Shown: positions 46,235-64,000, counted from the first letter of the stretch. The stretch is 64,000 bases of DNA from Escherichia coli (GCF_044324875.1 NZ_CP172185.1), one strand, 5' to 3'. Program-made: numbers and translations. Notes: a model not told the origin generated them from the sequence alone.

Positions 46235-47398
46235 ATGTCTGTAATTAAGATGACCGATCTGGATCTTGCTGGGAAACGTGTATTTATCCGTGCGGATCTG
46301 AACGTACCAGTAAAAGACGGGAAAGTAACCAGCGACGCGCGTATCCGTGCTTCTCTGCCGACCATCGAACTGGCCCTGAAACAAGGCGCAAAAGTGATGG
46401 TAACTTCCCACCTGGGTCGTCCTACCGAAGGCGAGTACAACGAAGAATTCTCTCTGCTGCCGGTTGTTAACTATCTGAAAGACAAACTGTCTAACCCGGT
46501 TCGTCTGGTTAAAGATTACCTCGACGGCGTTGACGTTGCTGAAGGTGAACTGGTTGTTCTGGAAAACGTTCGCTTCAACAAAGGCGAGAAGAAAGACGAC
46601 GAAACCCTGTCCAAAAAATACGCTGCACTGTGTGACGTGTTCGTAATGGACGCATTCGGTACTGCTCACCGCGCGCAGGCTTCTACTCACGGTATCGGTA
46701 AATTCGCTGACGTTGCGTGCGCAGGCCCGCTGCTGGCAGCTGAACTGGACGCGCTGGGTAAAGCACTGAAAGAACCTGCTCGCCCGATGGTGGCTATCGT
46801 TGGTGGTTCTAAAGTATCTACCAAACTGACCGTTCTGGACTCCCTGTCTAAAATCGCTGACCAGCTGATTGTTGGTGGTGGTATCGCTAACACCTTTATC
46901 GCGGCACAAGGCCACGATGTGGGTAAATCCCTGTACGAAGCTGACCTGGTTGACGAAGCTAAACGTCTGCTGACCACCTGCAACATCCCGGTTCCGTCTG
47001 ATGTTCGCGTAGCAACCGAGTTCTCTGAAACTGCACCGGCTACCCTGAAATCTGTTAACGATGTGAAAGCTGACGAGCAGATCCTGGATATCGGTGATGC
47101 TTCCGCTCAGGAACTGGCTGAAATCCTGAAGAATGCGAAAACCATTCTGTGGAACGGTCCGGTTGGCGTGTTCGAATTCCCGAACTTCCGCAAAGGTACT
47201 GAAATCGTGGCTAACGCTATCGCAGACAGCGAAGCGTTCTCCATCGCTGGCGGCGGCGACACTCTGGCAGCAATCGACCTGTTCGGCATTGCTGACAAAA
47301 TCTCCTACATCTCCACTGGCGGCGGTGCATTCCTCGAATTCGTGGAAGGTAAAGTACTGCCTGCAGTAGCGATGCTCGAAGAGCGCGCTAAGAAGTAA
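46235..47398 (+). CDS. pgk: Phosphoglycerate kinase
   Basis: Translation from [15 protein letters not shown] matches Pgk (387 aa). Confidence 0.97.
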
Positions 47399-47461
47399 AA
47401 AAATCACAGGGCAGGGAAACCTGCCCTTGTTGCAGCGCGCTTTTAAAGCACGCACTTTTTC

Positions 47462-47586
47462 ATACTCTAAATAATTCGAGTTGCAGGAAGGCGACAAGAG
47501 AGTGAATCCCATGAGCTTACATAAGTAAGTGACTGAGGTGAGCGAACGCAGACGCAGCACATGCAACTTGAAGTATGACGAGTATA
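47462..47586 (+). repeat. ERIC (IRU) repetitive element, copy 1, pgk–fbaA spacer
   Basis: Contains the ERIC core GTGAATCCC..GAGCTTACATAAGTAAGTGACTG.GGTGAGCG; near-identical to the inverted copy at 60520-60648. Confidence 0.7.
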
Positions 47587-47612
47587 AGGCCCGACGATAC
47601 AGGACAAGAGAC

Positions 47613-48692
47613 ATGTCTAAGATTTTTGATTTCGTAAAACCTGGCGTAATCACTGGTGATGACGTACAGAAAGTTTTCCAGGTAGCAAAAGAAAACAACT
47701 TCGCACTGCCAGCAGTAAACTGCGTCGGTACTGACTCCATCAACGCCGTGCTGGAAACCGCTGCTAAAGTTAAAGCGCCGGTTATCGTTCAGTTCTCCAA
47801 CGGTGGTGCTTCCTTTATCGCTGGTAAAGGCGTGAAATCTGACGTTCCGCAGGGTGCTGCTATCCTGGGCGCGATCTCTGGTGCGCATCACGTTCACCAG
47901 ATGGCTGAACATTATGGTGTTCCGGTTATCCTGCACACCGACCACTGCGCGAAGAAACTGCTGCCGTGGATCGACGGTCTGCTGGACGCGGGTGAAAAAC
48001 ACTTCGCTGCTACCGGTAAGCCGCTGTTCTCTTCTCACATGATCGACCTGTCTGAAGAATCTCTGCAAGAGAACATCGAAATCTGCTCTAAATACCTGGA
48101 GCGCATGTCCAAAATCGGCATGACTCTGGAAATCGAACTGGGTTGCACCGGTGGTGAAGAAGACGGCGTGGACAACAGCCACATGGACGCTTCTGCACTG
48201 TACACCCAGCCGGAAGACGTTGATTATGCGTATACCGAGCTGAGCAAAATCAGCCCGCGTTTCACCATCGCTGCCTCCTTCGGTAACGTACACGGTGTTT
48301 ACAAGCCGGGTAACGTTGTTCTGACTCCGACCATCCTGCGCGACTCTCAGGAATATGTTTCTAAGAAACACAACCTGCCGCACAACAGCCTGAACTTCGT
48401 ATTCCACGGTGGTTCCGGTTCTACTGCTCAGGAAATCAAAGACTCCGTAAGCTACGGCGTAGTGAAAATGAACATCGATACCGATACCCAATGGGCAACC
48501 TGGGAAGGCGTTCTGAACTACTACAAAGCAAACGAAGCTTATCTGCAGGGTCAGCTGGGTAACCCGAAAGGCGAAGATCAGCCGAACAAGAAATATTACG
48601 ATCCGCGCGTATGGCTGCGTGCCGGTCAGACTTCGATGATCGCTCGTCTGGAAAAAGCATTCCAGGAACTGAACGCGATCGACGTTCTGTAA
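47613..48692 (+). CDS. fbaA: Fructose-bisphosphate aldolase class II
   Basis: Translation from MSKIFDFVKPGVITGDD matches FbaA (359 aa). Confidence 0.97.
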   Translation: MSKIFDFVKPGVITGDDVQKVFQVAKENNFALPAVNCVGTDSINAVLETAAKVKAPVIVQFSNGGASFIAGKGVKSDVPQGAAILGAISGAHHVHQMAEHYGVPVILHTDHCAKKLLPWIDGLLDAGEKHFAATGKPLFSSHMIDLSEESLQENIEICSKYLERMSKIGMTLEIELGCTGGEEDGVDNSHMDASALYTQPEDVDYAYTELSKISPRFTIAASFGNVHGVYKPGNVVLTPTILRDSQEYVSKKHNLPHNSLNFVFHGGSGSTAQEIKDSVSYGVVKMNIDTDTQWATWEGVLNYYKANEAYLQGQLGNPKGEDQPNKKYYDPRVWLRAGQTSMIARLEKAFQELNAIDVL

Positions 48693-48715
48693 GATATTCC
48701 TTTCTGCTTATCTCA

Positions 48716-48742
48716 AGGCCCGCTCTGCGGGTCTTTTTTTTG
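48716..48742 (+). terminator. Intrinsic terminator after fbaA
   Basis: CCCGCtctgCGGG hairpin followed by TTTTTTTT. Confidence 0.6.
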
Positions 48743-48756
48743 CTAAAAGAAAAATT

Positions 48757-48857
48757 GCCTGATGCGCTACGCTTATCAGGCCTACACGTATCCTGCAATA
48801 TATTGAATTCGCAGGTTTTTGTAGGCCGGATAAGGCGTTCACGCCGCATCCGGCATG
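48757..48857. repeat. REP/BIME cluster
   Basis: GCCTGATGCGCTACGCTTATCAGGCCTACA and GTAGGCCGGATAAGGCGTTCACGCCGCATCCGGCA units. Confidence 0.6.
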
Positions 48858-48883
48858 ACAAAGCGCACATTGATATCTGTCTG

Positions 48884-48908
48884 AGCCCCGCTCTGCGGGG
48901 ATTTTTTC
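48884..48908 (+). terminator. Second terminator-like hairpin (CCCCGCtctgCGGGG plus T-run)
   Basis: Near-duplicate of the hairpin at 48716-48742, on the other side of the BIME. Confidence 0.5.
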
Positions 48909-49049
48909 GCCAAAAGCAAGGTGATGCAGATGAGAAATCTGTGATCTATTTGGCAAAATTATGCTTTATTGTTTACCCTTGTCAGACTGCCCGTCATAAG
49001 GCGGCGGAGTGTATTTCTCCATTTTGAGTCAGTTGAAAAGGAATATTGA

Positions 49050-49925
<876 letters not shown>

Positions 49926-49966
49926 TCATGTAAAGCGCCCATGAAGTTCATGGGCGCACTACCAAT

Positions 49967-51010
49967 TTAACGCATTGTTTCATCGAGTATATTGGCAACT
50001 TTTTGCATGACTTCCCCGGCTTTCTCCACGCCTTCCTTATTTTGCTTTTCTACCCACTGTGCTTGTTCTTGCTGATAACCGATCGCTTTCTGCCAGGCGT
50101 CCAGCCCTGATTTTTTCAGATAGCGAACCTGTGCACCTTCCTGCTCAAGCGTTTTTACCATGCTGATCAGGTTGTTATCTAATGCCTTGCCCAGTGCTTT
50201 CTCGGTTGTAATGGCAGCTCGTTGAATAGCCTCACGATCTCTGTTATCAAGGTTTTCCCACGATTGTTTATTCATTACCAACAGATAAACATGACCAAGC
50301 CAGAGAGAAGGTGAGAGCAACACATTCGGCGCAGCACGTTCAGCATGGATGTCATATCCGCTATCGAGATTGACCATTAAACCATCCAGTTTTCCATCCA
50401 TGAGTGCTTTAGTTATTTGATCATTCCACGGTAAAGTTACGGTTTTTGCCCCCGTATGAGTTAAATAAGCCCGATGCCAGAAACTGGCTGTTCGCCAGGT
50501 GGTTCCCTGAAGCGCAGTCAATTTATCAATGGGCCTGGTAGAGAAAAAGCCTACCGGGTAGCCAAGGAAAAACTGTAAATTCACGATATTGTTACGCTCA
50601 AGTTCAGCGTTAAATTCGGGAATTTCCGCATATACGCGACGAAAGAATTCTACCTGACTGGCTCCATGATCCGGGCCAATAGCAAAGCTCTTGAAGATTT
50701 GATGAAGCGGCAATTGTTTCGCGGTGTATTCCGGCACCACTATACCCATATCAGCTTTGCTGCCATCGCTTATTGTCGTCAGAGCGTCATAGCTGATGGC
50801 GGTTTCACCGTTCCAGTGTGGTTCGATTTTCAAACGCCCCTGCGACTCTTTTTCAATTTCTGCAAAAAATATCTCTTTAATTATTTGTGTACGCATTCCC
50901 CCGTAGGGTTCATGGTCTGTATAACGAAGAATTTTTTCAGCAGCAAAAATCGAGGGAGATAACAGAAGAAATCCTGATAAAAGAAAGGGGAGTAATTGTC
51001 GGTAGTGCAT
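49967..51010 (-). CDS. Orphan periplasmic solute-binding protein, DctP (TRAP) family, 347 aa
   Basis: Signal peptide; aligns by eye with the dctP-like protein at 17494-18480 (WRTAS vs GTRSF, LMDGKLDG vs QQGVVDG, LVMNKQSWENL vs LVISTKTWNKL). No permease genes adjacent. Confidence 0.7.
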   Translation of the reverse strand: MHYRQLLPFLLSGFLLLSPSIFAAEKILRYTDHEPYGGMRTQIIKEIFFAEIEKESQGRLKIEPHWNGETAISYDALTTISDGSKADMGIVVPEYTAKQLPLHQIFKSFAIGPDHGASQVEFFRRVYAEIPEFNAELERNNIVNLQFFLGYPVGFFSTRPIDKLTALQGTTWRTASFWHRAYLTHTGAKTVTLPWNDQITKALMDGKLDGLMVNLDSGYDIHAERAAPNVLLSPSLWLGHVYLLVMNKQSWENLDNRDREAIQRAAITTEKALGKALDNNLISMVKTLEQEGAQVRYLKKSGLDAWQKAIGYQQEQAQWVEKQNKEGVEKAGEVMQKVANILDETMR

Positions 51011-51125
51011 ATCTGTTCCTTCAGTTTATTAATTCAACTTATACTATATTAATTTTATCAATTATCCCTAATGTTATTCCTGCGCTATAGTCTGCGCATC
51101 AGATAATTAGCCCGGAATTAATTAC

Positions 51126-51760
51126 GTGATATCTTATTACTTTCAAGGTCTTGCACTTGGGGCGGCTATGATCCTACCGCTCGGTCCACAAAATGCTTTT
51201 GTGATGAATCAGGGCATACGTCGTCAGTACCACATTATGATTGCCTTACTTTGTGCTATCAGCGATTTGGTCCTGATTTGCGCCGGGATTTTTGGTGGCA
51301 GTGCGTTATTGATGCAGTCGCCGTGGTTGCTGGCGCTGGTCACCTGGGGCGGCGTAGCCTTCTTGCTGTGGTATGGTTTTGGCGCTTTTAAAACAGCATG
51401 AGCAGTAATATTGAGTTAGCCAGCGCCGAAGTCATGAAGCAAGGCAGATGGAAAATTATCGCCACCATGTTGGCAGTGACCTGGCTGAATCCGCATGTTT
51501 ACCTCGATACTTTTGTTGTTCTGGGCAGCCTTGGCGGGCAACTTGATGTGGAACCAAAACGTTGGTTTGCGCTCGGGACAATTAGCGCTTCTTTCCTGTG
51601 GTTCTTTGGTCTGGCTCTTCTCGCTGCCTGGCTGGCACCGCGTCTGCGCACGGCAAAAGCACAGCGCATTATCAATCTGGTTGTGGGATGTGTTATGTGG
51701 TTTATTGCCTTGCAGCTGGCGAGAGACGGTATTGCTCATGCACAAGCCTTGTTCAGTTAG
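51126..51760 (+). pseudogene. argO: Arginine exporter ArgO (LysE family), disrupted by a 1-bp frameshift at about 51397
   Basis: Two overlapping ORFs (91 aa ending ..GFGAFKTA, then [12 protein letters not shown].. of 120 aa) together reconstitute 211-aa ArgO; junction reads GCATGAGC where GCAATGAGC would keep the frame. Confidence 0.7.
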
Positions 51761-51852
51761 GCGCTATCTGATGGAAAAATAAAACAGAGGCGCTAAGCTT
51801 GCCTCCAGAGGTCCTGAATTTTAGGCAAGTCAATTAACACGGAGAGACTAAC

Positions 51853-52593
51853 GTGAAGTTCAAAGTTATCGCCCTGGCGGCATTAATGGGTATTAGCGGG
51901 ATGGCAGCGCAGGCTAACGAATTGCCGGATGGACCGCATATTGTCACCTCCGGTACGGCAAGCGTGGATGCGGTGCCAGACATTGCCACTCTTGCGATTG
52001 AAGTCAACGTGGCCGCGAAGGATGCCGCTACTGCCAAGAAACAGGCGGATGAGCGCGTCGCACAATACATTTCCTTCCTTGAACTCAATCAGATCGCGAA
52101 AAAAGATATCAGCTCAGCGAACTTACGCACCCAGCCAGATTATGATTATCAGGATGGTAAAAGTATCCTGAAAGGCTACCGTGCTGTGAGAACGGTGGAA
52201 GTCACGCTCCGTCAGTTAGACAAACTGAATTCCTTGCTGGACGGCGCGCTGAAGGCGGGTCTTAACGAAATTCGTTCTGTGTCGCTGGGCGTGGCGCAGC
52301 CGGATGCCTATAAAGACAAAGCGCGTAAGGCAGCGATTGATAACGCGATTCATCAGGCGCAGGAACTGGCGAACGGCTTTCATCGTAAACTGGGGCCGGT
52401 ATATAGCGTGCGCTACCATGTTTCCAACTATCAGCCCAGCCCAATGGTGCGGATGATGAAAGCCGATGCCGCGCCGGTGTCCGCCCAGGAAACTTACGAG
52501 CAGGCCGCTATTCAGTTTGATGATCAGGTCGATGTGGTCTTCCAGTTAGAACCTGTGGATCAACAACCCGCTAAAACACCTGCCGCACAATAA
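51853..52593 (+). CDS. yggE: Periplasmic SIMPL/DUF541 protein YggE
   Basis: 246-aa ORF with signal peptide; matches YggE. Confidence 0.9.
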   Translation: MKFKVIALAALMGISGMAAQANELPDGPHIVTSGTASVDAVPDIATLAIEVNVAAKDAATAKKQADERVAQYISFLELNQIAKKDISSANLRTQPDYDYQDGKSILKGYRAVRTVEVTLRQLDKLNSLLDGALKAGLNEIRSVSLGVAQPDAYKDKARKAAIDNAIHQAQELANGFHRKLGPVYSVRYHVSNYQPSPMVRMMKADAAPVSAQETYEQAAIQFDDQVDVVFQLEPVDQQPAKTPAAQ

Positions 52594-52760
52594 TACTTGT
52601 AGCCCGACGTATTGGTCGGGCTAATGCCTTTACCCGATATTGCCTCCTTTTTCTGTAATTTTCTGTAAAACCATGACGTAATCACCTATCTTTGCTCGCG
52701 GTTTCATCAAGGATAGGCTGACTGAAACGGTTAAGCGGACAAGGATGCGGGGGAGCGGGG

Positions 52761-53657
52761 ATGGACATTTTTATTTCGAAAAAGATGCGCAATTTCATTT
52801 TATTAGCGCAAACCAATAATATTGCCCGGGCGGCAGAAAAAATCCATATGACGGCTTCGCCATTTGGCAAAAGCATTGCCGCGCTGGAAGAACAAATTGG
52901 CTATACGCTATTTACCCGCAAAGATAATAATATCAGCCTCAATAAAGCCGGGCAGGAACTGTATCAAAAACTGTTCCCGGTTTATCAACGACTTTCTGCG
53001 ATTGATAATGAAATCCATAACTCAGGACGTCGTTCACGAGAAATTGTGATAGGCATAGATAATACTTATCCGACCATTATTTTTGATCAGTTGATTAGTC
53101 TCGGAGATAAGTACGAAGGCGTGACCGCCCAGCCAGTTGAGTTCAGCGAAAACGGCGTTATCGATAATCTTTTTGACCGTCAGTTAGATTTTATTATCTC
53201 CCCACAGCATGTATCTGCACGAGTTCAGGAACTGGAAAATCTGACTATCAGTGAACTACCACCGCTGCGATTGGGCTTTCTCGTTTCTCGCCGTTATGAA
53301 GAGCGTCAAGAGCAAGAGCTGCTTCAGGAGCTGCCCTGGCTACAAATGCGCTTTCAGAACCGGGCCAACTTCGAAGCAATGATTGATGCGAATATGCGAC
53401 CTTGTGGGATCAATCCAACCATTATTTATCGTCCCTACAGTTTTATGGCCAAAATCAGCGCCGTGGAGCGCGGACATTTTCTGACGGTGATCCCGCATTT
53501 TGCCTGGCGACTGGTGAATCCGGCAACGCTGAAATATTTTGATGCACCGCACAGGCCGATGTATATGCAGGAATATCTTTATTCAATCAGAAATCATCGT
53601 TATACCGCCACGATGCTTCAGCATATTGCTGAAGATCGTGACGGGACGAGTCATTAA
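52761..53657 (+). CDS. ygfI: LysR-family transcriptional regulator YgfI
   Basis: 298-aa ORF with N-terminal HTH (NNIARAAEKIHMTASPFGKSI). Confidence 0.9.
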   Translation: MDIFISKKMRNFILLAQTNNIARAAEKIHMTASPFGKSIAALEEQIGYTLFTRKDNNISLNKAGQELYQKLFPVYQRLSAIDNEIHNSGRRSREIVIGIDNTYPTIIFDQLISLGDKYEGVTAQPVEFSENGVIDNLFDRQLDFIISPQHVSARVQELENLTISELPPLRLGFLVSRRYEERQEQELLQELPWLQMRFQNRANFEAMIDANMRPCGINPTIIYRPYSFMAKISAVERGHFLTVIPHFAWRLVNPATLKYFDAPHRPMYMQEYLYSIRNHRYTATMLQHIAEDRDGTSH

Positions 53658-55132
53658 CCCAGCATCGAGCCGGTTGCAATTAAATTACGGTGTAAATCGA
53701 AGACGTGGCTAAGATCGTGGTGAATATGTCCGCCGGGCGCATTTTCCAGATAGCGATGCAGATAATCCCGATACATAGGATGTGCACAATTATCAATGAT
53801 AGTGCGGGCGCGTTGAAGCGGGGAAAGACCACGCAGATCGGCGATCCCTTGTTCGGTGATGATCACTTTGACGCTGTGTTCGCTGTGATCAACATGGCTG
53901 CACATTGGCACGACGGTTGAGATCTTGCCTTCTTTAGCAATCGACGGGGCCATAAAGATCGACAGATACGCGTTGCGTTCAAAATCGCCGCTGCCACCGA
54001 TGCCGTTCATCAGATCGACCCCGGCTACGTGCGTTGAGTTGGCATGCCCGTAAATATCAAACTCCAGGCCGACGTTCAGAGCGATGACGCCCAGACGACG
54101 GATGATTTCCGGGTTATTGGAAATCTCCTGCGGACGCAACACAATGCGGCTGGCAAAGTAATCCATATTGTCGTAAATCTTGCGCAGGGAATCGGCCGAG
54201 ATAGTCAGGCTGGAGGCGCTGGCCCCGCTGATTTTGCCCGTTTCCAGTAAATGCACCACCGATTCCTGTAGCACTTCCGAATACATCATAAACGGAGGAA
54301 TTTCCGGATTTTCCCCCAGACGCGCCATTACCGCATTATTGATGTTGCCCACGCCACTTTGCAGCGGCAGAAATTCCGGCGGAATACGCCCATGCGCCAT
54401 TTCCTGCAACAAGAACGTGACCACGTTATCGGCAATCTGCTGGCACATGGGATTTTGCTTATCCAGCATATTACCGGCGTCGGGCAAGTTGGTTTCCACG
54501 ACGGCGACAATCTTTTTCGGATCGATTTGCACATAGCGGGTACCGACGCGATCCATTGCATGGAAGATCGACACGCTATTGCGCCGCGGTGGCGCGCCAG
54601 GAATCACAATATCTGCCAGTTCTGCAACGCGCGGATCGTGATAGTGATTGAGTTCAATGATCACTTTCTTCGCCCGCAGCAGCCAGGTCGGCGCATTACC
54701 GATCCCGCTGGTTAACCAGACTCGACCATCCGGTGCCAGTGCCGATGCTTCAATGACGGCAACATCAATTTCGCCGAAGAAACCGTAATTGACCATTTGC
54801 GCCACTTCGCTCAAATGCAGGTCAACGAAACTCACCGCGCCCTGATTGATCTTTTTACGTAAACCGGACGATGTTTGATATGGCGCACGCTAGGAAACAG
54901 CATCGGCGTCAGAAAGTACATCGTCAGCGGCGGCGCTGATTGACGCCCCCGTCAGCAGGCGAATTTGATACGGCTTTTTGGCCTCATGCTGTTCGTTAGC
55001 TCTGCGGGCAATCGCGGTGGGTAAGGCTTTCGGCGAACCCGCTGGGGTAAAGCCGCTAAATGCCACCATGTCGTTATGCTGGATAATTTCTGCCGCTTCA
55101 TCGGCGGTCATCCTTGTCCACTGAGTTTCCAT
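53654..55132 (-). pseudogene. scpC: Propionyl-CoA:succinate CoA-transferase ScpC (YgfH), interrupted by an in-frame TAG at 54890-54892
   Basis: 80 codons (METQWTRMTADEAAEII...DADAVS), then TAG, then the same frame continues RAPYQTSSGLRKKINQGAVSFVDLHL... for another 411 codons to the natural stop. Confidence 0.7.
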
Positions 55133-55155
55133 TTTAACTCCTTCGTTCGCAGGGA

Positions 55156-55941
55156 TTAATGACCAACGAAATTAGGTTTACGTTTTTCGAGGAAAGCGTT
55201 CATCCCTTCCTGGTAATCTTCGCTGTCATAAACCGCGCGGCGCATCCCCTGAATACGTTCAAATTCATCGGAGTTCATGGTGTGTGCTTCGCCCAGTACA
55301 CGCAGCTCTTCTTTGATAACGGCAATGGCTAACGGCGCTTTCTCAGAGATGTGGTGCGCCATTTGTAAGGTGAAATCTTCCAGTTCTTCCACTTCCACAA
55401 CATGGTTGAGGATGCCGACAGCCAGCGCGCGCTGGGCGGTGATTGGCGAAGCGGTAAAAATCAGCTCTTTGACAATGTGGAAGCCCGCGTCGCGGGTCAG
55501 GTTGTGAATGCCGACCAGGTTATACGGGACGCCGAGGTTTACAGGTGTCATTGAGAAGGTTGAGGTACTGGCGGCGATGATCAGATCGGAACTCATGATC
55601 ATTTCAAATGCGCCACCCCAGACACTACCTTCCACCATCGAAATGATCGGTTTCGGGAATTTTTGGATCATGCGGGTGATTTGACGCAATGGATCATCAT
55701 AGGAGAGCGGATCGCGACCGCCAGACGGCAGTTCGTGAATATCGTGACCTGCGGAGAAGACTTTGGATCCACTCGGCGCGCGCAAAATGATACAGCGAAT
55801 TTCCGGCCGGTTGAGATCGCTTAACGCCTGCATAAGATCATCAATAAAGACTTTACTTAAGGCATTAAGTTTTCGGCCATAGTTAAACTCAATGACCGCC
55901 ACTTTGTTGATAGTGACAACGTTCACATACTGATAAGACAT
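55156..55941 (-). CDS. scpB: Methylmalonyl-CoA decarboxylase
   Basis: Translation from MSYQYVNVVTINKVAVIEFN matches ScpB/YgfG (261 aa). Confidence 0.9.
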   Translation of the reverse strand: MSYQYVNVVTINKVAVIEFNYGRKLNALSKVFIDDLMQALSDLNRPEIRCIILRAPSGSKVFSAGHDIHELPSGGRDPLSYDDPLRQITRMIQKFPKPIISMVEGSVWGGAFEMIMSSDLIIAASTSTFSMTPVNLGVPYNLVGIHNLTRDAGFHIVKELIFTASPITAQRALAVGILNHVVEVEELEDFTLQMAHHISEKAPLAIAVIKEELRVLGEAHTMNSDEFERIQGMRRAVYDSEDYQEGMNAFLEKRKPNFVGH

Positions 55942-55951
55942 AAAAATTCCT

Positions 55952-56947
55952 TTAATCAAAATATTGCGTCTGGATAAATTCACTGAGCTGCCGCAGGCCG
56001 GTGCGCGGTGAGAGCGTATTGTTTTTGACCGCTAAAAGCGTCTGGCGGTAATAGCGATCGAAATCTTCATTCGCGAACAGGTGATTCAGTACTTCTTCTT
56101 CGGTTTGTTTACGCAGCCATTCCACCGATTGTTGTTGCCGCACTTGTTGTAATCGACCACTGGCAGTTAGCGCGGTTTTGAAGTCGATGATGGCGTGCCA
56201 GATCTCATCGATTCCACGTTTTTCCAGTGCGCTACAAGTCAGAACCCGTGGCTGCCATTCGTCGTATTTACGTCGCAGAATATGCAGGGCACTCTCGTAC
56301 ATATGCCGGGCAATGGCGATATTGGTATGGTTATCGCCATCGTCTTTGTTGATAACGATCAGATCTGCCACTTCCATCAGCCCCTTTTTAATGCCCTGCA
56401 GATCATCGCCGCCACCGGCAATTTGCAACGAGATAAAACAGTCCACCATGCGGGCGACTTCCGTTTCTGACTGCCCGACGCCAACCGTTTCGACAATCAC
56501 TACGTCATAACCCGCCGCTTCGCATAACAGCATTAATTCCCGCGCTCGCTGACTGGCACCGCCCAGATGGCCGGAGGAGGGTACCGGGCGAATAAACGCC
56601 GCCTCGGCACGCGCCAGGTCATTCATGCGGGTTTTATCCCCGAGGATGCTACCGCCAGTGACCGGGCTGCTAGGATCGACCGCAATAACCGCAACCTTTA
56701 ATCCATCACGAATCAACAACATGCCAAAGGCTTCAAGAAAGGTACTTTTCCCCGCGCCGGGTGTGCCGGTAACGCCCAGTCGCAGGGCGTTACCACAGAA
56801 CGGCATAATGGCATCAAGCAGCTGCGTACTTAGCGCCTGATGACGCGGGTGACGGCTTTCTACCAGCGTCATGGCCTGGGCGAGCGTGGCACGCTCACCC
56901 TGACGTAAGCGGCGAATACTTTCTGCCAGCGTGGCTTCATTAATCAT
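55952..56947 (-). CDS. argK: Methylmalonyl-CoA mutase-associated GTPase (MeaB-like)
   Basis: P-loop GTPGAGKST; matches ArgK/YgfD (331 aa). Confidence 0.9.
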
Positions 56948-59084
56948 GATGCTGGCTTATCAGATTCAGTACGTCGCGCACGCTGTCGAGCATAGGTGTA
57001 CCTGGACCATAAATCGCCGCCACGCCGCGCTCTTGCAGGAAGGCGTAATCCTGCGGCGGAATGACGCCACCCGCGACCACGCAGATATCTTCGCGTCCCC
57101 ATTTTTTCAGCGCTTCGACCAGTTCCGGGATCAGCGTTTTATGACCGGCAGCCAGTGAAGATGCGCCCACTACGTGAACGTCGTTTTCTACTGCCAGGCG
57201 GGCGATCTCTTCAGGTGTAGAGAACATCGGGCTTAAATCTACGTCGAAACCGAGATCGGAATAGGCGCTGGCGATCACTTTTGCGCCGCGATCGTGCCCA
57301 TCCTGGCCCATTTTGGCGATCAGAATGCGCGGGCGACGACCATTGTCGGCAAGGAACTGCTCCGTTTGCGCAACAATGGCATCGAACTCGGTGGCCGATT
57401 TCTCAGACTGATGATAGCTTTGCGCAATCACGCCGGTAACACACTGGCTTGGCACCAGATAACGGTCAAATGCCGCTTCCAGCGCATCGGAAATTTCACC
57501 AAGCGTTGCGCGAACGCGAGCGGCATTAACAGCGGCAGCCAGCAGGTTTTCGTTATGCTGTGCGGCGTGAGTCAGGGCGTTCAACGCGGCGGTTACGGCG
57601 GCATCATCACGGGTGGCGCGAATGCGTTCCAGCGAAGCAATTTGCTCGTTACGCACCATCACGTTGTCGATCTCAAGTACATCGGTTTCGTCTTCGTGAT
57701 CCAGTTTGTACTTGTTGACACCAACGATGACACGCTTGCCCTGGTCGATCAACGACTGTTCGCGCGCGGAAGCCTCTTCGATCATTCGTTTTGGCAGACC
57801 TGCTTCGATCGCTTTCGCCATGCCACCGGCTTCGTCGATCTGTTGGATAATGGCTCTGGCTTGTTTGACGATTTGATCGGTCAGCGATTCAACGTAATAG
57901 GATCCGGCCAGTGGATCGACGGTGCGGCAGAGTTCTGATTCTTCCTGAATGATGATCTGGGTGTTGCGGGCAATGCGTGCTGAGAAATCGGTAGGCAAAC
58001 CAAGCGCTTCATCAAAGGCGTTGGTATGCAGTGACTGAGTACCGCCCAGCGTTGCAGCCAGTGCTTCAATGGTGGTGCGGATAACGTTGTTATACGGATC
58101 CTGTTCAGTCAGGCTCCAGCCTGAGGTCTGGCAGTGGGTACGCAGCGCCAGTGATTTCGGATCCTGTGCGCCAAATCCACTGACCGCTTCGCTCCATAAA
58201 TAACGTGCCGCACGCAACATGGCGACGTTCATAAACAGATCCATGCCAATGCCGAAGAAGAACGACAGGCGAGGAGCGAAGTCATCAATTTTCAGCCCGG
58301 CGGAGATTGCTGCTTTGATGTACTCAATCCCATCAGCGAGCGTAAATGCTACCTGCTGCACGCAGTTGGCACCCGCTTCACCCATATGGTAACCGCTGAT
58401 ACTGATGGTATTAAATCGCGGCATGTTGCCGGAACACCAGGCGATGATGTCTGCGATAATACGCATTGACGGTTTTGGCGGGTAAATATAGGTGTTGCGG
58501 CAAAGATACTCTTTGAGGATATCGTTTTGAATGGTGCCGGTCAGTTTATCGGGTGTAACACCTTGCTCTTCTGCGGCGACAATATAAAACGCCAGTACTG
58601 GTAGTACTGCGCCATTCATGGTCATCGAAACCGACATTTTATCCAGCGGGATCTGGTCGAACAGGACTTTCATATCTTCCACGGTGTCGATAGCAACGCC
58701 CGCTTTGCCGACGTCGCCCGCCACGCGCGGGTTATCGGAGTCGTAGCCTCGGTGGGTGGCAAGGTCAAACGCAACGGAAAGACCTTTTTGCCCGGCGGCC
58801 AGGTTACGGCGATAAAAAGCGTTGGACTCTTTTGCTGTTGAAAAACCAGCATACTGACGGATGGTCCACGGTTGGGCGGTATACATAGTGGCACGCGGGC
58901 CACGAACGTAGGGCGGCAAACCAGGAAGGGTACCTGTCACCTCCAGATTATCGAGATCGGCTTCGGTATACAGCGGCTTGATGGCGATCCCTTCCGCGGT
59001 TTGCTGAACCAGCGAGTCGACAGTTTTCTCCCGACGGCTCAATTCCTTGTTGGCAAGCTGTTGCCACTCCTGCACCTTAGACAT
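56940..59084 (-). CDS. scpA: Methylmalonyl-CoA mutase
   Basis: Translation from [16 protein letters not shown] matches ScpA/Sbm (about 714 aa). Confidence 0.95.
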
Positions 59085-59286
59085 TATTTGCTCCGTAAAA
59101 CGCAATCAAAATGAGGGTATTTGCGCTTACGGTGAGCTTTTTACGTGGGTTTGTCGCCAGCAAAAAAATGCATTCAGACGTCGTTTTTTGCCGCCTGAGA
59201 TTTGTCTATTTTGTGATGTGATTCAAGGAATACAAAAAGAAGTGAGGATAACGCCTGATATGTGCTATCAGGCATTATTTGATGGA

Positions 59287-60180
59287 TTAATCCTGACGAA
59301 GGACTTTGTGACCATAATCGAGCAACGCATCAGTGACTTTACGCATCATGCGGCTTTCAGGAGCAAAGCGGTGCCAGTAGAGCATCCGGCGTTGAAATAG
59401 CCCTGGCGTTAAGTCAATCAGTTCACCGCTGGCCAGTTCTTTCTCGATTTGCAGGTGCGGGATCATACAGCAGGTGGTGCCCTGGCGAGCAAGTTGCACG
59501 AACGCTTCTGAAGAATTAACGATATGGCACGGTACGCTGCCTGGGGGCAGATCGAAGTTTTGCTGCAAAAAGGCCTGGTGCATATCGTCAAGATGGTCAA
59601 AGGCGACCACAGGTGCTTTCAGTAATGCCGAACGCGTTACGCCGTTAGGGAAATATTTTTCGGCAAACGGTTTTGAGCTGACGAACAGATAGTCGAGCGC
59701 ACCGAGCTTATCGACAAGACAGCTCGGCAGCGCCTGATGTTGAATACTCACCGCGCCGACCACTTCGCCGCGGCGCAGGCGTTCCTGAGTGCGGGTTTCA
59801 TCTTCTACCTGCAAGTTGAGGCGGATAGGCGAATCAGCCAATACAGGAGCCAGCGCCGGAAGCAACCACGTCGCCAGACTGTCGGCGTTGACCGCCAGTG
59901 AAAGCAGCAGCGGAGTCGAACCGGTTTGTTCATCGCCCAGCCACTCTTCTTCCAGCAACTCCACCTGGCGCAGCAGTGCCAGCAGTTTTTGCCCTTGTTC
60001 TGTCGGGCGCGGTGGTACGGTACGCACCAACAGCGGCTGCCCGAACATATTTTCCAGTTGCTTAATGCGTTGTGAGACGGCTGATTGTGTAATGCACAGC
60101 TTTTGTGCCGCGCGCTCAAATCCTCGTTCACGTATCACCGCATCCAGTGCCTGTAATGTTCTGTAGTCCGGGCGTTTCAT
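59287..60180 (-). CDS. argP: LysR-family regulator ArgP (IciA)
   Basis: Translation from [28 protein letters not shown] matches ArgP (297 aa). Confidence 0.9.
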
Positions 60181-60519
60181 TGCTGTTGTCTGCTCCTGGT
60201 AAATGCTTTTTCCTGCACTATGACACAATTTTGTGTCAGGTTGCATATACCGAAGCCGTCGGTGGGTAACATTTGTATCAATGGTTAAACGCGCAGCTTA
60301 AAAGATCAGGGATTTGCGCTATTGCATTTCGCTTAGCGACTTCGCGCCCTGGTTATGTTGAATGGCGTGGCGTTATTGCCTCTGATCGCACCGTGGAGCG
60401 GCATACCCAGACCGTTATATGCTTTATTTGCCGGGCGAAAGGGGATGCCTGCCATTGCGCGATATTTTATGGATGAGTTAACCACGCGGCTTGCCAACGG
60501 GGTCTGAATCGCTTTTTTG

Positions 60520-60648
60520 TATATACTCGTCATACTTCAAGTTGCATGTGCTGCGTCTGCGTTCGCTCACCCCAGTCACTTACTTCTGTAAGCTCCTGGG
60601 GATTCACTCTCTTGTCGCCTTCCTGCAACTCGAATTATTTAGAGTATA
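60520..60648 (-). repeat. ERIC (IRU) repetitive element, copy 2, inverted relative to copy 1
   Basis: Reverse complement is near-identical to 47462-47586; lies immediately upstream of rpiA. Confidence 0.7.
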
Positions 60649-60684
60649 ATGCGTGTGAAATTTCATACCACAGGCGAAACGATC

Positions 60685-61344
60685 ATGACGCAGGATGAAT
60701 TGAAAAAAGCAGTAGGATGGGCGGCACTTCAGTATGTTCAGCCCGGCACCATTGTTGGTGTAGGTACAGGTTCCACCGCCGCACACTTTATTGACGCGCT
60801 CGGCACGATGAAAGGCCAGATTGAAGGGGCCGTTTCCAGTTCAGATGCTTCCACTGAAAAACTGAAAAGCCTCGGCATTCACGTTTTTGATCTCAACGAA
60901 GTCGACAGCCTTGGCATCTACGTTGATGGCGCAGATGAAATCAACGGCCACATGCAAATGATTAAAGGCGGCGGCGCGGCGCTGACCCGTGAAAAAATCA
61001 TTGCTTCGGTTGCAGAAAAATTTATCTGTATTGCCGACGCCTCCAAGCAGGTTGATATTCTGGGCAAATTCCCGCTGCCAGTAGAAGTTATCCCGATGGC
61101 ACGTAGTGCAGTGGCGCGCCAGCTGGTGAAACTGGGCGGTCGTCCGGAATACCGCCAGGGCGTGGTGACCGATAACGGCAACGTGATCCTCGACGTCCAC
61201 GGCATGGAAATCCTTGACCCGATAGCGATGGAAAACGCCATAAATGCGATTCCTGGCGTGGTGACTGTTGGCTTGTTTGCTAACCGTGGCGCGGACGTTG
61301 CGCTGATTGGCACACCTGACGGTGTCAAAACCATTGTGAAATGA
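60685..61344 (+). CDS. rpiA: Ribose-5-phosphate isomerase A
   Basis: Translation from [18 protein letters not shown] matches RpiA (219 aa). Confidence 0.95.
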
Positions 61345-62989: not shown

Positions 62990-63140
62990 ACGATGGCAGG
63001 GCAGCATGGTGCTGTAACGGTAAAGCCCTCACCGAAGCGAGGGCTTGAAGGAGAAGGGTTATGATGCGACTTGTCATCATACTGATTGTACTGTTACTCA
63101 TAAGTTTCCCAGCTTATTAACAGTCAGTCTCAGGGGAGGA
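62990..63140 (-). ncRNA. sibC: Antisense antitoxin sRNA SibC (approximate boundaries)
   Basis: Inferred from the ibsC position and the known antisense arrangement; ends not determinable by eye. Confidence 0.35.
63061..63120 (+). CDS. ibsC: Type I toxin small hydrophobic peptide IbsC (19 aa)
   Basis: MMRLVIILIVLLLISFPAY with RBS GGAG upstream, in the serA–ygfA spacer where the sibC/ibsC locus lies in E. coli. Confidence 0.6.
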   Translation: MMRLVIILIVLLLISFPAY

Positions 63141-63220
63141 GTCATCCTCCCTTACCCTTACTCACTAAATTAGGTTAAAGAATCAACGATGTCAATCAGG
63201 GCGATGCAGGTGTGTCGCCC

Positions 63221-63841: not shown

Positions 63842-64000
63842 AGGGAATCTCCGAGATGCCGCCGCAGGCTGTAACCCTTGAACCCTTGGTTCAAGGTGAA
63901 TGTGTCGTCGCAGTTTTAAGGCTTCTCGGACGGACCGAGCATGCTCACCAACCGCGGAGCGCCACATTCTTGTGGTATGAAATATCGGCTCAGGGGACTG
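63842..64000 (-). ncRNA. ssrS: 6S RNA, 3' 159 nt (5' end beyond the window)
   Basis: Reverse complement matches the 6S RNA sequence ...CAGUCCCCUGAGCCGAUAUUUCAUACCACAAGAAUGUGGCGCUCCGCGGUUGGUGAGCAUGCUCGG...GGAGAUUCCCU; directly upstream of ygfA as in E. coli. Confidence 0.8.

Follow-up and report, generated by a model that had tools for sequence, protein, structure and literature searches.

Two inverted ERIC elements in an Escherichia coli genome: a fixed copy between pgk and fbaA and a rare insertion bordering the rpiA −10 box

The window analysed here, a 64-kb stretch of Escherichia coli DNA (64,000 nucleotides), carries two near-identical repeats in inverted orientation, which differ in history and do not form a functional pair. 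The reading that we hold with good confidence is that both are ordinary ERIC elements: copy 1, between pgk and fbaA, is a fixed and transcribed element, and copy 2, upstream of rpiA, is a derived insertion that rebuilt the −10 box of the rpiA promoter. The element family is a known one; the polymorphic insertion site upstream of rpiA is new.

The repeat pair and the ERIC family

The original prediction described two near-identical ERIC elements in inverted orientation, one in the pgk–fbaA spacer and the other in the argP–rpiA spacer. The copies are indeed reverse complements of each other, and the gene context agrees with the gene calls (Table 1); argP lies on the minus strand, and a remnant of a LysR-type gene is located between it and copy 2. 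A repeat search of the window returned inverted arms at 47462-47510/60599-60647 (49 nt, 100% complementary) and at 47508-47586/60522-60600 (79 nt, 96%), and gapped alignment joins them into one unbroken repeat, about 125 nt long, in which the copies differ by four substitutions and one 1-nt indel (95-96% identity). The 44-nt ERIC core, which has one mismatch to copy 2, has a chance expectation of 0 in 100 shuffles of the window, and copies 1 and 2 are the only ERICs (n = 2) in the 64 kb.

Table 1. Coordinates of the two ERIC copies and of neighbouring features, counted from the first letter of the window
Feature	Position	Strand	Description
pgk	46235-47398	+	Gene upstream of copy 1
GC-rich hairpin	47408-47427		Directly past the pgk stop codon, before copy 1
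ERIC copy 1	47461-47586	+	126 nt by comparison with the published 127-nt form; pgk–fbaA spacer
Intervening segment	47587-60521		12,935 nt; fbaA, mscS, TRAP-SBP gene, argO, yggE, srsR, scpC-scpB-meaB-scpA, argP
fbaA	47613-48692	+	Gene downstream of copy 1
LysR-family C-terminal remnant (yqfE-like)	60355-60507	+	Pseudogene beyond argP; intact in some strains
Left junction TATATA	60520-60525	+	(TA)n run entered by the ERIC; from aligned filled and empty alleles
ERIC copy 2	60522-60648	-	127 nt (TATAC...GTATA), 5' of rpiA; measured against the published 127-nt form
rpiA −10 hexamer TATAAT	60645-60650	+	Bases 1-4 coincide with the TATA end of the 127-nt ERIC
Inferred rpiA TSS	60657	+	Downstream of the ERIC, 28 nt before the ATG; transferred from empty-site strains
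rpiA	60685-61344	+	Coding sequence, downstream of copy 2

The ERIC, IRU or RU-1 elements of the Enterobacteriaceae were reportedly described by Sharples and Lloyd in 1990, by Hulton and co-workers in 1991 and by Wilson and Sharp in 2006. Both repeats belong to this family, whose members are miniature inverted-repeat elements of 127 bp, and both fall into one nearly identical E. coli subfamily. Measured against the reference sequences, for which the published 127-nt form TATAC...GTATA was used (Delihas 2007, PMC2759123, Table 1a), copy 1 is 85-90% identical, with 88-90% for the 127-nt forms, and copy 2 agrees with the E. coli ERIC consensus of the same table at about 115 positions and with Salmonella SeRU-1 at 118/127; taken over the published E. 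coli and Salmonella sequences, identity is 87-93%. ERICs are characterized by terminal inverted repeats with 5'-TA-3' at each terminus (PMC2229807, Table 1), and the termini TATACTC...GAGTATA are common to copy 2, the K-12 pgk–fbaA copy and the ybhI–ybhJ copy. As RNA, each copy folds into a long hairpin (−37.3 kcal/mol, z = −3.5, for copy 1; −39.7 kcal/mol, z = −5.2, for copy 2), and 0 of 200 shuffles fold as well in either case. The site of primer ERIC2 has no mismatch in copy 2 and one in copy 1, and that of primer ERIC1R has one mismatch in copy 2 and is broken by an indel in copy 1. ERICs are multi-copy in this species, with a median of five megablast places per E. coli genome, and loci were confirmed at pgk–fbaA, ybhI–ybhJ, rpnC–panC and upstream of rpiA.

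In other words, the repeats resemble the family in their length (126-127 nt), their TATAC...GTATA termini, a central core with the ERIC1R and ERIC2 sites, the long imperfect hairpin, their intergenic location, their multi-copy nature and a TA-rich insertion site. Copy 1 shows no difference from a typical member, whereas copy 2 is located 5' of a promoter −10 box and not within a transcription unit, is a presence/absence polymorphism in E. coli, and has an expected 2-bp TA duplication that is not cleanly recoverable. Both copies also align over positions 1-129 of the Rfam model RF02818 (V_AS5, Vibrio antisense RNA AS5), with 41.4 and 36.0 bits (E = 5e-6 and 1.5e-4). The gathering score of 96 bits is much higher than either value, and membership of V_AS5 was rejected; the matches are supportive only, and fit the presence of ERIC-like repeats in vibrios.

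Copy 2 as an insertion upstream of rpiA

Copy 2 is a rare, derived, single-origin insertion, found in about 1% of E. coli (66 of the 5,426 complete genomes) and in one cryptic Escherichia lineage. The empty allele reads G(TA)3ATGCG, and the filled allele G(TA)3CTCG...AGAG(TA)2ATGCG; the filled one is longer by a net 123 nt, gained within a (TA)n run in which the exact boundaries are ambiguous. If the element arrived by transposition, as we presume, a 123-nt unit with a TA duplication would predict a gain of 125 nt, and the observed gain is one TA fewer. All the filled alleles have the same junctions, the same orientation and a private C (CTTCTGTAAG). They occur in B2 EPEC E2348/69, in pig ETEC O139:H1, in human, bovine and avian strains, and in the cryptic lineage. 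Between the window and Escherichia sp. MOD1-EC7003, the ERIC is identical at 127/127 positions and the neighbouring 10.9 kb is only 95% identical, which fits recombinational spread of the element, but would fit gene conversion or recurrent insertion at this one site as well. Copy 2 is 1 nt away from the K-12 pgk–fbaA ERIC and 2 nt away from the ybhI–ybhJ ERIC of ATCC 11775; judged by sequence, both loci are possible donors, too close to be separated.

The rpiA-site element also occurs in longer forms. In strain 06-00048 it is 198 bp long and holds one nested 72-nt insert, and in E2348/69 it is 276 bp long and holds two nested inserts; the inserts in these two forms are of 72 nt and about 80 nt and occupy mirror-image positions within the element, and the 72-nt insert is identical to that of the rpnC–panC ERIC in O157:H7. 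The site is found in four allelic states: without an ERIC, with a 127-bp ERIC, with a 198-bp form holding one insert and with a 276-bp form holding two. Enlarged ERICs, which carry internal insertions of about 70 bp, were reportedly described by Sharp in 1997 and by Wilson and Sharp in 2006. The alleles of 06-00048 and E2348/69 resemble these, whereas both copies in the window are of the short form.

The original prediction also noted a TATAAT hexamer about 35 bp before rpiA and attributed it to the ERIC. The hexamer does overlap the end of copy 2, and 34 nt separate it from the rpiA ATG, but the box itself pre-exists in the empty alleles, which carry GTATATAATGCG, that is, TATAAT without an ERIC. 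It stands at the same distance from rpiA in the empty sites of K-12, O111, E. whittamii and Escherichia sp. E1V33; the empty site of E. albertii reads CTATAAT, and between TATAAT and the ATG the filled and empty alleles do not differ. In two empty-site strains, EDL933 (PMC10469882, supplementary file 6) and K-12 (RegulonDB), the mapped rpiA TSS precedes the ATG by 28 nt, and this position is 7 nt past the hexamer, so that the mapped start already fits the same box where the ERIC is absent. A secondary rpiA TSS has been reported in EDL933 at 133 nt upstream of the ATG (PMC10469882, supplementary file 6), and would map into the LysR-family remnant.

The ERIC landed in the (TA)3 run that borders the rpiA −10 box on its upstream side. 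As the element ends in ...GAGTATA, TATAAT was regenerated and the sequence downstream of it (TSS, leader and ATG) restored without change, and an ERIC arm took the place of the spacer, the −35 region and the DNA further upstream. A consensus scanner called no full sigma-70 promoter in the filled or the empty rpiA allele, and the promoter argument therefore relies on the mapped TSS. No good −35 is present in either allele: the −35-like hexamer of the filled allele, CTGCAA in the ERIC arm, matches TTGACA at 3/6 positions with a 16-nt spacer, and that of the empty allele matches at 2/6. Each allele has a perfect −10 box but lacks a recognisable −35, so that the insertion was probably tolerated, with rpiA expression probably little changed by it; the slightly better CTGCAA could alter promoter strength. 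Little change in expression would explain the survival of copy 2 and its spread by recombination.

Two other accounts of the rpiA site have to be weighed against an insertion that left the box intact. One of them makes copy 2 ancestral and the empty site the product of precise excision or deletion in most lineages. The diverse backgrounds of the filled alleles, with the cryptic Escherichia lineage among them, speak for it, and a 123-nt net gain without a visible duplication makes a "precise" empty site compatible in sequence with excision. However, the site is empty in 98.8% of the genomes (K-12, O157, O111 and CB6837 have empty sites) and in E. albertii, E. whittamii, and Escherichia sp. E1V33 and SCPM-O-B-8794. 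The filled ERICs, moreover, are only 0-1 nt apart, as against up to 8/250 in the rpiA flanks (right side only, a comparison of low power), and they share the private substitution, which is missing from the two other subfamily loci compared. This low divergence and the shared private substitution argue for a young, single-origin insertion, and we regard an ancestral copy 2 as very improbable.

The other account holds that copy 2 supplies the −10, and perhaps the −35, so that rpiA is driven by a mobile-element promoter in the filled strains. Four of the six TATAAT bases (60645-60648) do fall within the canonical 127-nt ERIC, CTGCAA lies in the ERIC arm 16 nt upstream, and other ERIC ends create −10-like hexamers, TATAAG at both pgk–fbaA and rpnC–panC. 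Against this stand the same hexamer at the same distance in empty alleles and outgroups, its agreement with the TSS of empty-site strains and the lack of a scanner call in either allele; examined as a promoter-donating element, copy 2 supplied no hexamer that the empty site lacks. We therefore consider an ERIC-borne rpiA promoter unlikely. Copy 2 is like the hybrid-promoter mobile elements (for example, an IS with an outward −35) in that it abuts a −10 and provides the DNA at the −35 position, but here the −10 box is older than the element and a consensus −35 is not supplied. The favoured reading thus remains a derived insertion next to a box that was already there.

The left-flank divergence among the filled alleles is uninformative, being dominated by indels in the LysR pseudogene.

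Copy 1 and the intervening segment

Copy 1 is an old element that is fixed in E. coli: 5,422 of the 5,426 complete genomes have its native junction. Its orientation is the "forward" one of Hulton and of Wilson and Sharp relative to pgk→fbaA transcription. The only fbaA promoters detected lie upstream of pgk, with no TSS detected in the pgk–fbaA spacer, and copy 1 is co-transcribed in the epd-pgk-fbaA polycistronic mRNA (PMC2759082); the consensus promoter/terminator scanner likewise called no full sigma-70 promoter in this spacer. In the accounts of De Gregorio et al. 2005 given in PMC2229807 and PMC3184786, Yersinia ERICs modulate mRNA stability via RNase E. By analogy with these, copy 1 probably influences the processing or stability of the RNA between pgk and fbaA: it, too, is co-transcribed between two operon genes and has the same kind of hairpin, whereas its effect on RNA is extrapolated from Yersinia.

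Compared with the K-12 pgk–fbaA ERIC, copy 1 of the window has three changes that are missing from copy 2. Gene conversion between copies 1 and 2 in this lineage was considered and rejected on this ground.

It had also been proposed that the pair can mediate inversion of the fbaA–argP segment, which would make it an active substrate of RecA and a source of structural variation in populations. The copies do have suitable features: they are inverted, share 95-96% identity over about 126 nt and contain uninterrupted identical tracts of up to 49 nt, besides 79-nt arms at 96%; the minimal homology for RecA recombination is generally accepted to be less than 49 nt. Chimeric queries for both predicted junctions, at a coverage of at least 80%, found neither in any of the 5,426 complete E. 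coli genomes (0/5,426), whereas the native junctions were present (copy 2 in 66 genomes). The two copies occur together only in these 66, a small sample for a rare event, and the search covered finished assemblies, not reads. An inversion would turn fbaA onto the other strand, following an ERIC, and cut it off from the epd/pgk promoters, and the pgk–fbaA spacer has no detected TSS of its own (PMC2759082). As a gene, fbaA is essential in E. coli, and the inversion would probably be lethal. Because it would detach fbaA from its promoters in this way, the pair is best seen as a possible but unrealised substrate, and ongoing inversion seems to us highly unlikely.

Implications for ERIC mobility

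ERICs are common typing targets (ERIC-PCR) and are usually regarded as static in E. coli; to our knowledge, neither a mobilising enzyme nor a function has been established for them. The filled/empty polymorphism upstream of rpiA, with its outgroup polarity, exact junctions and nested variants, constitutes a defined recent insertion event, usable for studying target choice (a TA run in a −10 box) and the possible donor copies, and its natural alleles allow the effect size on the promoter of an essential-pathway gene to be determined. For genome scanning, the pair illustrates that near-identical inverted repeats alone are no sign of structural variation. We offer as a speculation, with a modest chance at best of being right, that the site, where the insertion sits on the −10 box of a housekeeping promoter, records ERIC mobility during the history of E. 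coli and that ERIC termini may favour TATA-type −10 boxes as targets and regenerate them. If so, an ERIC would be a mobile element able to exchange a promoter's upstream half without destroying the promoter, and the four natural rpiA alleles would be a ready series for examining promoter rewiring by a MITE and for finding the enzyme that mobilises it.

The ERIC pair and its gene setting

The two near-identical inverted repeats are real: a repeat search of the window returned two adjoining inverted arm pairs, one of 49 nt with 100% complementarity and one of 79 nt at 96%, and on gapped alignment these merge into a single repeat of ~125 nt, in which the two copies differ by four substitutions and an indel of one base. 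The original prediction was also right to name them as ERICs. Copy 1, in the pgk-fbaA spacer, and copy 2, upstream of rpiA, are both canonical ERIC (IRU / RU-1) elements, which match the published 127-nt E. coli consensus and Salmonella SeRU-1 (Delihas 2007; PMC2759123, Table 1a). Elements of this family are ~127 bp long, with terminal inverted repeats, TA at their termini, and a target-site duplication (PMC2229807; PMC3184786). Copy 2 (127 nt) has the termini TATAC...GTATA, is identical to SeRU-1 at 118 of 127 positions, and has ~115 matches to the E. coli consensus; copy 1 (126 nt) shows 85-90% identity to published ERIC sequences. Both fold into a long imperfect hairpin (-37.3 kcal/mol, z = -3.5 for copy 1; -39.7 kcal/mol, z = -5.2 for copy 2), and both give a full-length match to Rfam V_AS5 with a sub-threshold score. 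The ERIC2 primer site is kept in both copies (no mismatch in copy 2, one in copy 1) and the ERIC1R site of copy 2 has one mismatch. The elements themselves are nothing beyond textbook ERICs, and the 64-kb window holds none besides these two.

According to the annotation of a collinear genome, the left part of the region runs epd, pgk, copy 1, fbaA, mscS, a TRAP substrate-binding gene, argO, yggE, and srsR, followed by a minus-strand block (scpC-scpB-meaB-scpA, argP) and, on the right, by a LysR pseudogene remnant, copy 2, rpiA, and serA. The window is 98.8-98.9% identical to many complete E. coli genomes across 18 kb, and this 18-kb query is covered to at least 80% in one place in only 4,242 of 5,426 genomes, a figure to which the TRAP gene, presumably absent between mscS and argO in K-12, may contribute. 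Downstream of fbaA are two REP-like hairpin repeats, AGGCCCGCTCTGCGGGTCTTTTTT and AGCCCCGCTCTGCGGGGATTTTTT, matched by Rfam ES036 above the gathering threshold and by naRNA4 at a score under it. Farther right, a SIB antitoxin RNA (136 bits) adjoins the position at which an Ibs type I toxin gene is annotated in the collinear genome, and the 3' part of 6S RNA (ssrS) continues past the window end.

Coordinates of the features discussed, in the window or in loci of other strains with their own numbering
Feature	Sequence	Position	Strand
ERIC copy 1	window	47461-47586	+
ERIC copy 2	window	60522-60648	-
49-nt inverted arm pair	window	47462-47510/60599-60647	
79-nt inverted arm pair	window	47508-47586/60522-60600	
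REP-like hairpin repeats	window	48716-48907	
C4-dicarboxylate TRAP transporter substrate-binding gene	window	49967-51010	-
LysR-family remnant	window	60273-60507	+
PGAP 66-aa 'hypothetical protein'	window	60333-60533	-
Second EDL933 rpiA-associated TSS, as mapped	window	~60430 (region ~60415-60430)	+
TATAAT	window	60645-60650	
rpiA TSS, position carried over from K-12 and EDL933	window	~60657	
rpiA CDS	window	60685-61344	+
SIB antitoxin RNA	window	63045-63195	-
6S RNA (ssrS), 3' part	window	63844-64000	-
198-bp rpiA ERIC, strain 06-00048	L008	1201-1397	
276-bp rpiA ERIC, E2348/69	L009		
rpnC-panC ERIC with 72-nt insert, O157:H7 PV15-279	L024	617-815	
Intact LysR-family gene (CB6837, SCU-172, GF4-3)	L005; L010	730-1626 (L005)	

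The native copy-1 junction is present in 5,422 of 5,426 complete E. coli genomes; copy 1 is fixed, and it is transcribed together with pgk and fbaA as an RNA hairpin lying between them. Three changes in its central stem (C>T, C>A, and the loss of one G) set it apart from the K-12 pgk-fbaA ERIC; they are a lineage haplotype and not a sequencing error, because the pgk 3' end and copy 1 match at 100% across 625 bp in at least 15 other genomes. In Olvera et al. (2009), the 214-nt pgk-fbaA spacer had no detected transcription start, and fbaA was concluded to be transcribed from upstream promoters in the epd-pgk-fbaA operon (PMC2759082). In Yersinia, ERICs have an orientation-dependent, RNase E-linked effect on mRNA processing or stability (summarised in PMC2229807 and PMC3184786), and by analogy with those elements, for which the effect has been shown, copy 1 probably affects the processing or stability of its polycistronic mRNA.

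It had also been proposed that the pair could invert the 13-kb segment from fbaA to argP. We built chimeric queries for both predicted ERIC-by-ERIC junctions, pgk-ERIC-reverse(argP side) and reverse(fbaA)-ERIC-rpiA, and none of the 5,426 complete E. coli genomes covered at least 80% of either; the best matches reached 56% coverage and ended at the ERIC. Both copies occur together in only 66 genomes, so that the search has low power for rare events. No inverted arrangement has become fixed. The fbaA gene is essential in E. coli, and inversion would turn it away from the epd-pgk-fbaA promoters. Inversion through the pair is possible in principle, unobserved, and probably counter-selected, and the ERIC pair is not a functional unit.

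Distribution and origin of the rpiA insertion

The site upstream of rpiA occurs with the element (filled) or without it (empty). A 281-nt query made of the ERIC with flanking sequence on either side reached at least 80% coverage in only 66 of 5,426 genomes, and the native copy-2 junction query mostly gave 89% coverage, split in two or three pieces. The element is wholly absent from this site in K-12, O111, and CB6837, and O157:H7 genomes gave only partial two-piece coverage, as is typical for empty sites. Among the species representatives of the outgroup check, E. albertii, E. whittamii, Escherichia sp. E1V33, and the divergent E. coli SCPM-O-B-8794 are empty, and Escherichia sp. MOD1-EC7003 is filled. 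Junctions and orientation are common to all filled alleles examined, all of which also have a private substitution, reading CTTCTGTAAG in place of the CTTATGTAAG of the other ERIC loci compared. With the polarity given by the empty representatives, these common features mark copy 2 as a derived insertion of single origin.

Filled sites occur on diverse backgrounds, among them pig ETEC O139:H1, isolates from cattle, birds, and humans, and the B2 EPEC strain E2348/69. Between the window and MOD1-EC7003 the ERIC is identical at 127 of 127 positions, whereas identity falls to 95% across the 10.9 kb next to it. Copy 2 most likely spread by homologous recombination. As for its source, copy 2 is 1 nt apart from the K-12 pgk-fbaA ERIC and 2 nt apart from the ybhI-ybhJ ERIC of ATCC 11775, and a near-identical subfamily member may have been the donor. 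The three changes of copy 1 relative to the K-12 ERIC are missing from copy 2, which speaks against recent gene conversion between the two.

The rpiA site is in fact a four-state polymorphism (empty, 127-bp, 198-bp, and 276-bp). The 198-bp ERIC of strain 06-00048 contains a 72-nt insert between GGGGAT and TCACTC, and the 276-bp ERIC of E2348/69, AST215, and VCSW5/7 combines this insert with a related ~80-nt insert at the mirror position. In O157:H7 PV15-279 the rpnC-panC ERIC has the identical 72-nt insert at the corresponding internal position. Of 5,426 genomes, 615 have this insert, almost all of them in a single copy, which points to a nested element that inserts site-specifically or to conversion from one ERIC copy to another.

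The rpiA promoter

Empty alleles read CGC T7 G TATATAAT GCGTGTG, and filled alleles read CGC T6-8 G TATATA CTCG...ERIC...AGAG TATAAT GCGTGTG; from TATAAT through to the ATG the sequence is the same in both. The insertion point is the (TA)3 run that borders the -10 hexamer on its upstream side. Because the net gain at the filled site is 123 nt, one TA short of a 123-nt unit plus a TA duplication, the duplication is not unambiguously readable.

The original prediction had the ERIC supplying a -10 box to rpiA. Four of the six bases do now lie within the terminal TATA of the element, but the hexamer was already there in the empty alleles. The rpiA TSS is 28 nt 5' of the start codon in both RegulonDB (K-12) and Cappable-seq data (O157:H7 EDL933) (PMC10469882 supplementary file 6). 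Both of these TSS-mapped strains carry the empty site, and the TSS falls 7 bases after TATAAT. The hexamer is not donated by the ERIC. Because it is the same in the empty alleles and matches the TSS mapped in empty-site strains, TATAAT is the genuine rpiA -10 box and is older than the ERIC. Hove-Jensen & Maigaard in 1993 reportedly placed a well-conserved rpiA -10 region 34 bp before the start codon.

What the insertion altered is the DNA upstream of the -10 box. Neither allele has a credible -35, the best match to TTGACA being 2/6 in the empty and 3/6 in the filled allele (CTGCAA, 16-nt spacer). Such an insertion would be tolerated by a promoter that depends on its -10 box, which would explain the persistence of the allele. 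A second rpiA-associated TSS in EDL933, 133 nt upstream of the ATG (PMC10469882 supplementary file 6), maps within the LysR remnant, after a TTATAT motif, and a longer transcript from it would carry the ERIC hairpin in its leader in filled strains. Of the LysR-family gene, the window, K-12, and O111 retain a short remnant, and CB6837, SCU-172, and GF4-3 have the intact gene (298 aa); in CB6837 its neighbour is an FMN-dependent NADH-azoreductase gene instead of argP. In filled strains PGAP annotates a 'hypothetical protein' antisense to the remnant, with ~12 nt of its coding sequence inside the ERIC; this is probably an artefact of annotation.

In the literature accessible to us, which leaves out the catalogue of Wilson & Sharp 2006 (reportedly a survey of where ERICs are present or absent among the small number of genomes of that time), there is no mention of a promoter-abutting, polymorphic ERIC insertion at rpiA. 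The rpiA ERIC is a new site of a known kind of element, and not a new mechanism. As a MITE insertion, copy 2 rebuilt the -10 box and was tolerated; its position and conservation are observed directly, and we infer its neutrality. The rarity and derived state of this insertion are invisible from one sequence alone, and we judge them the more interesting finding.
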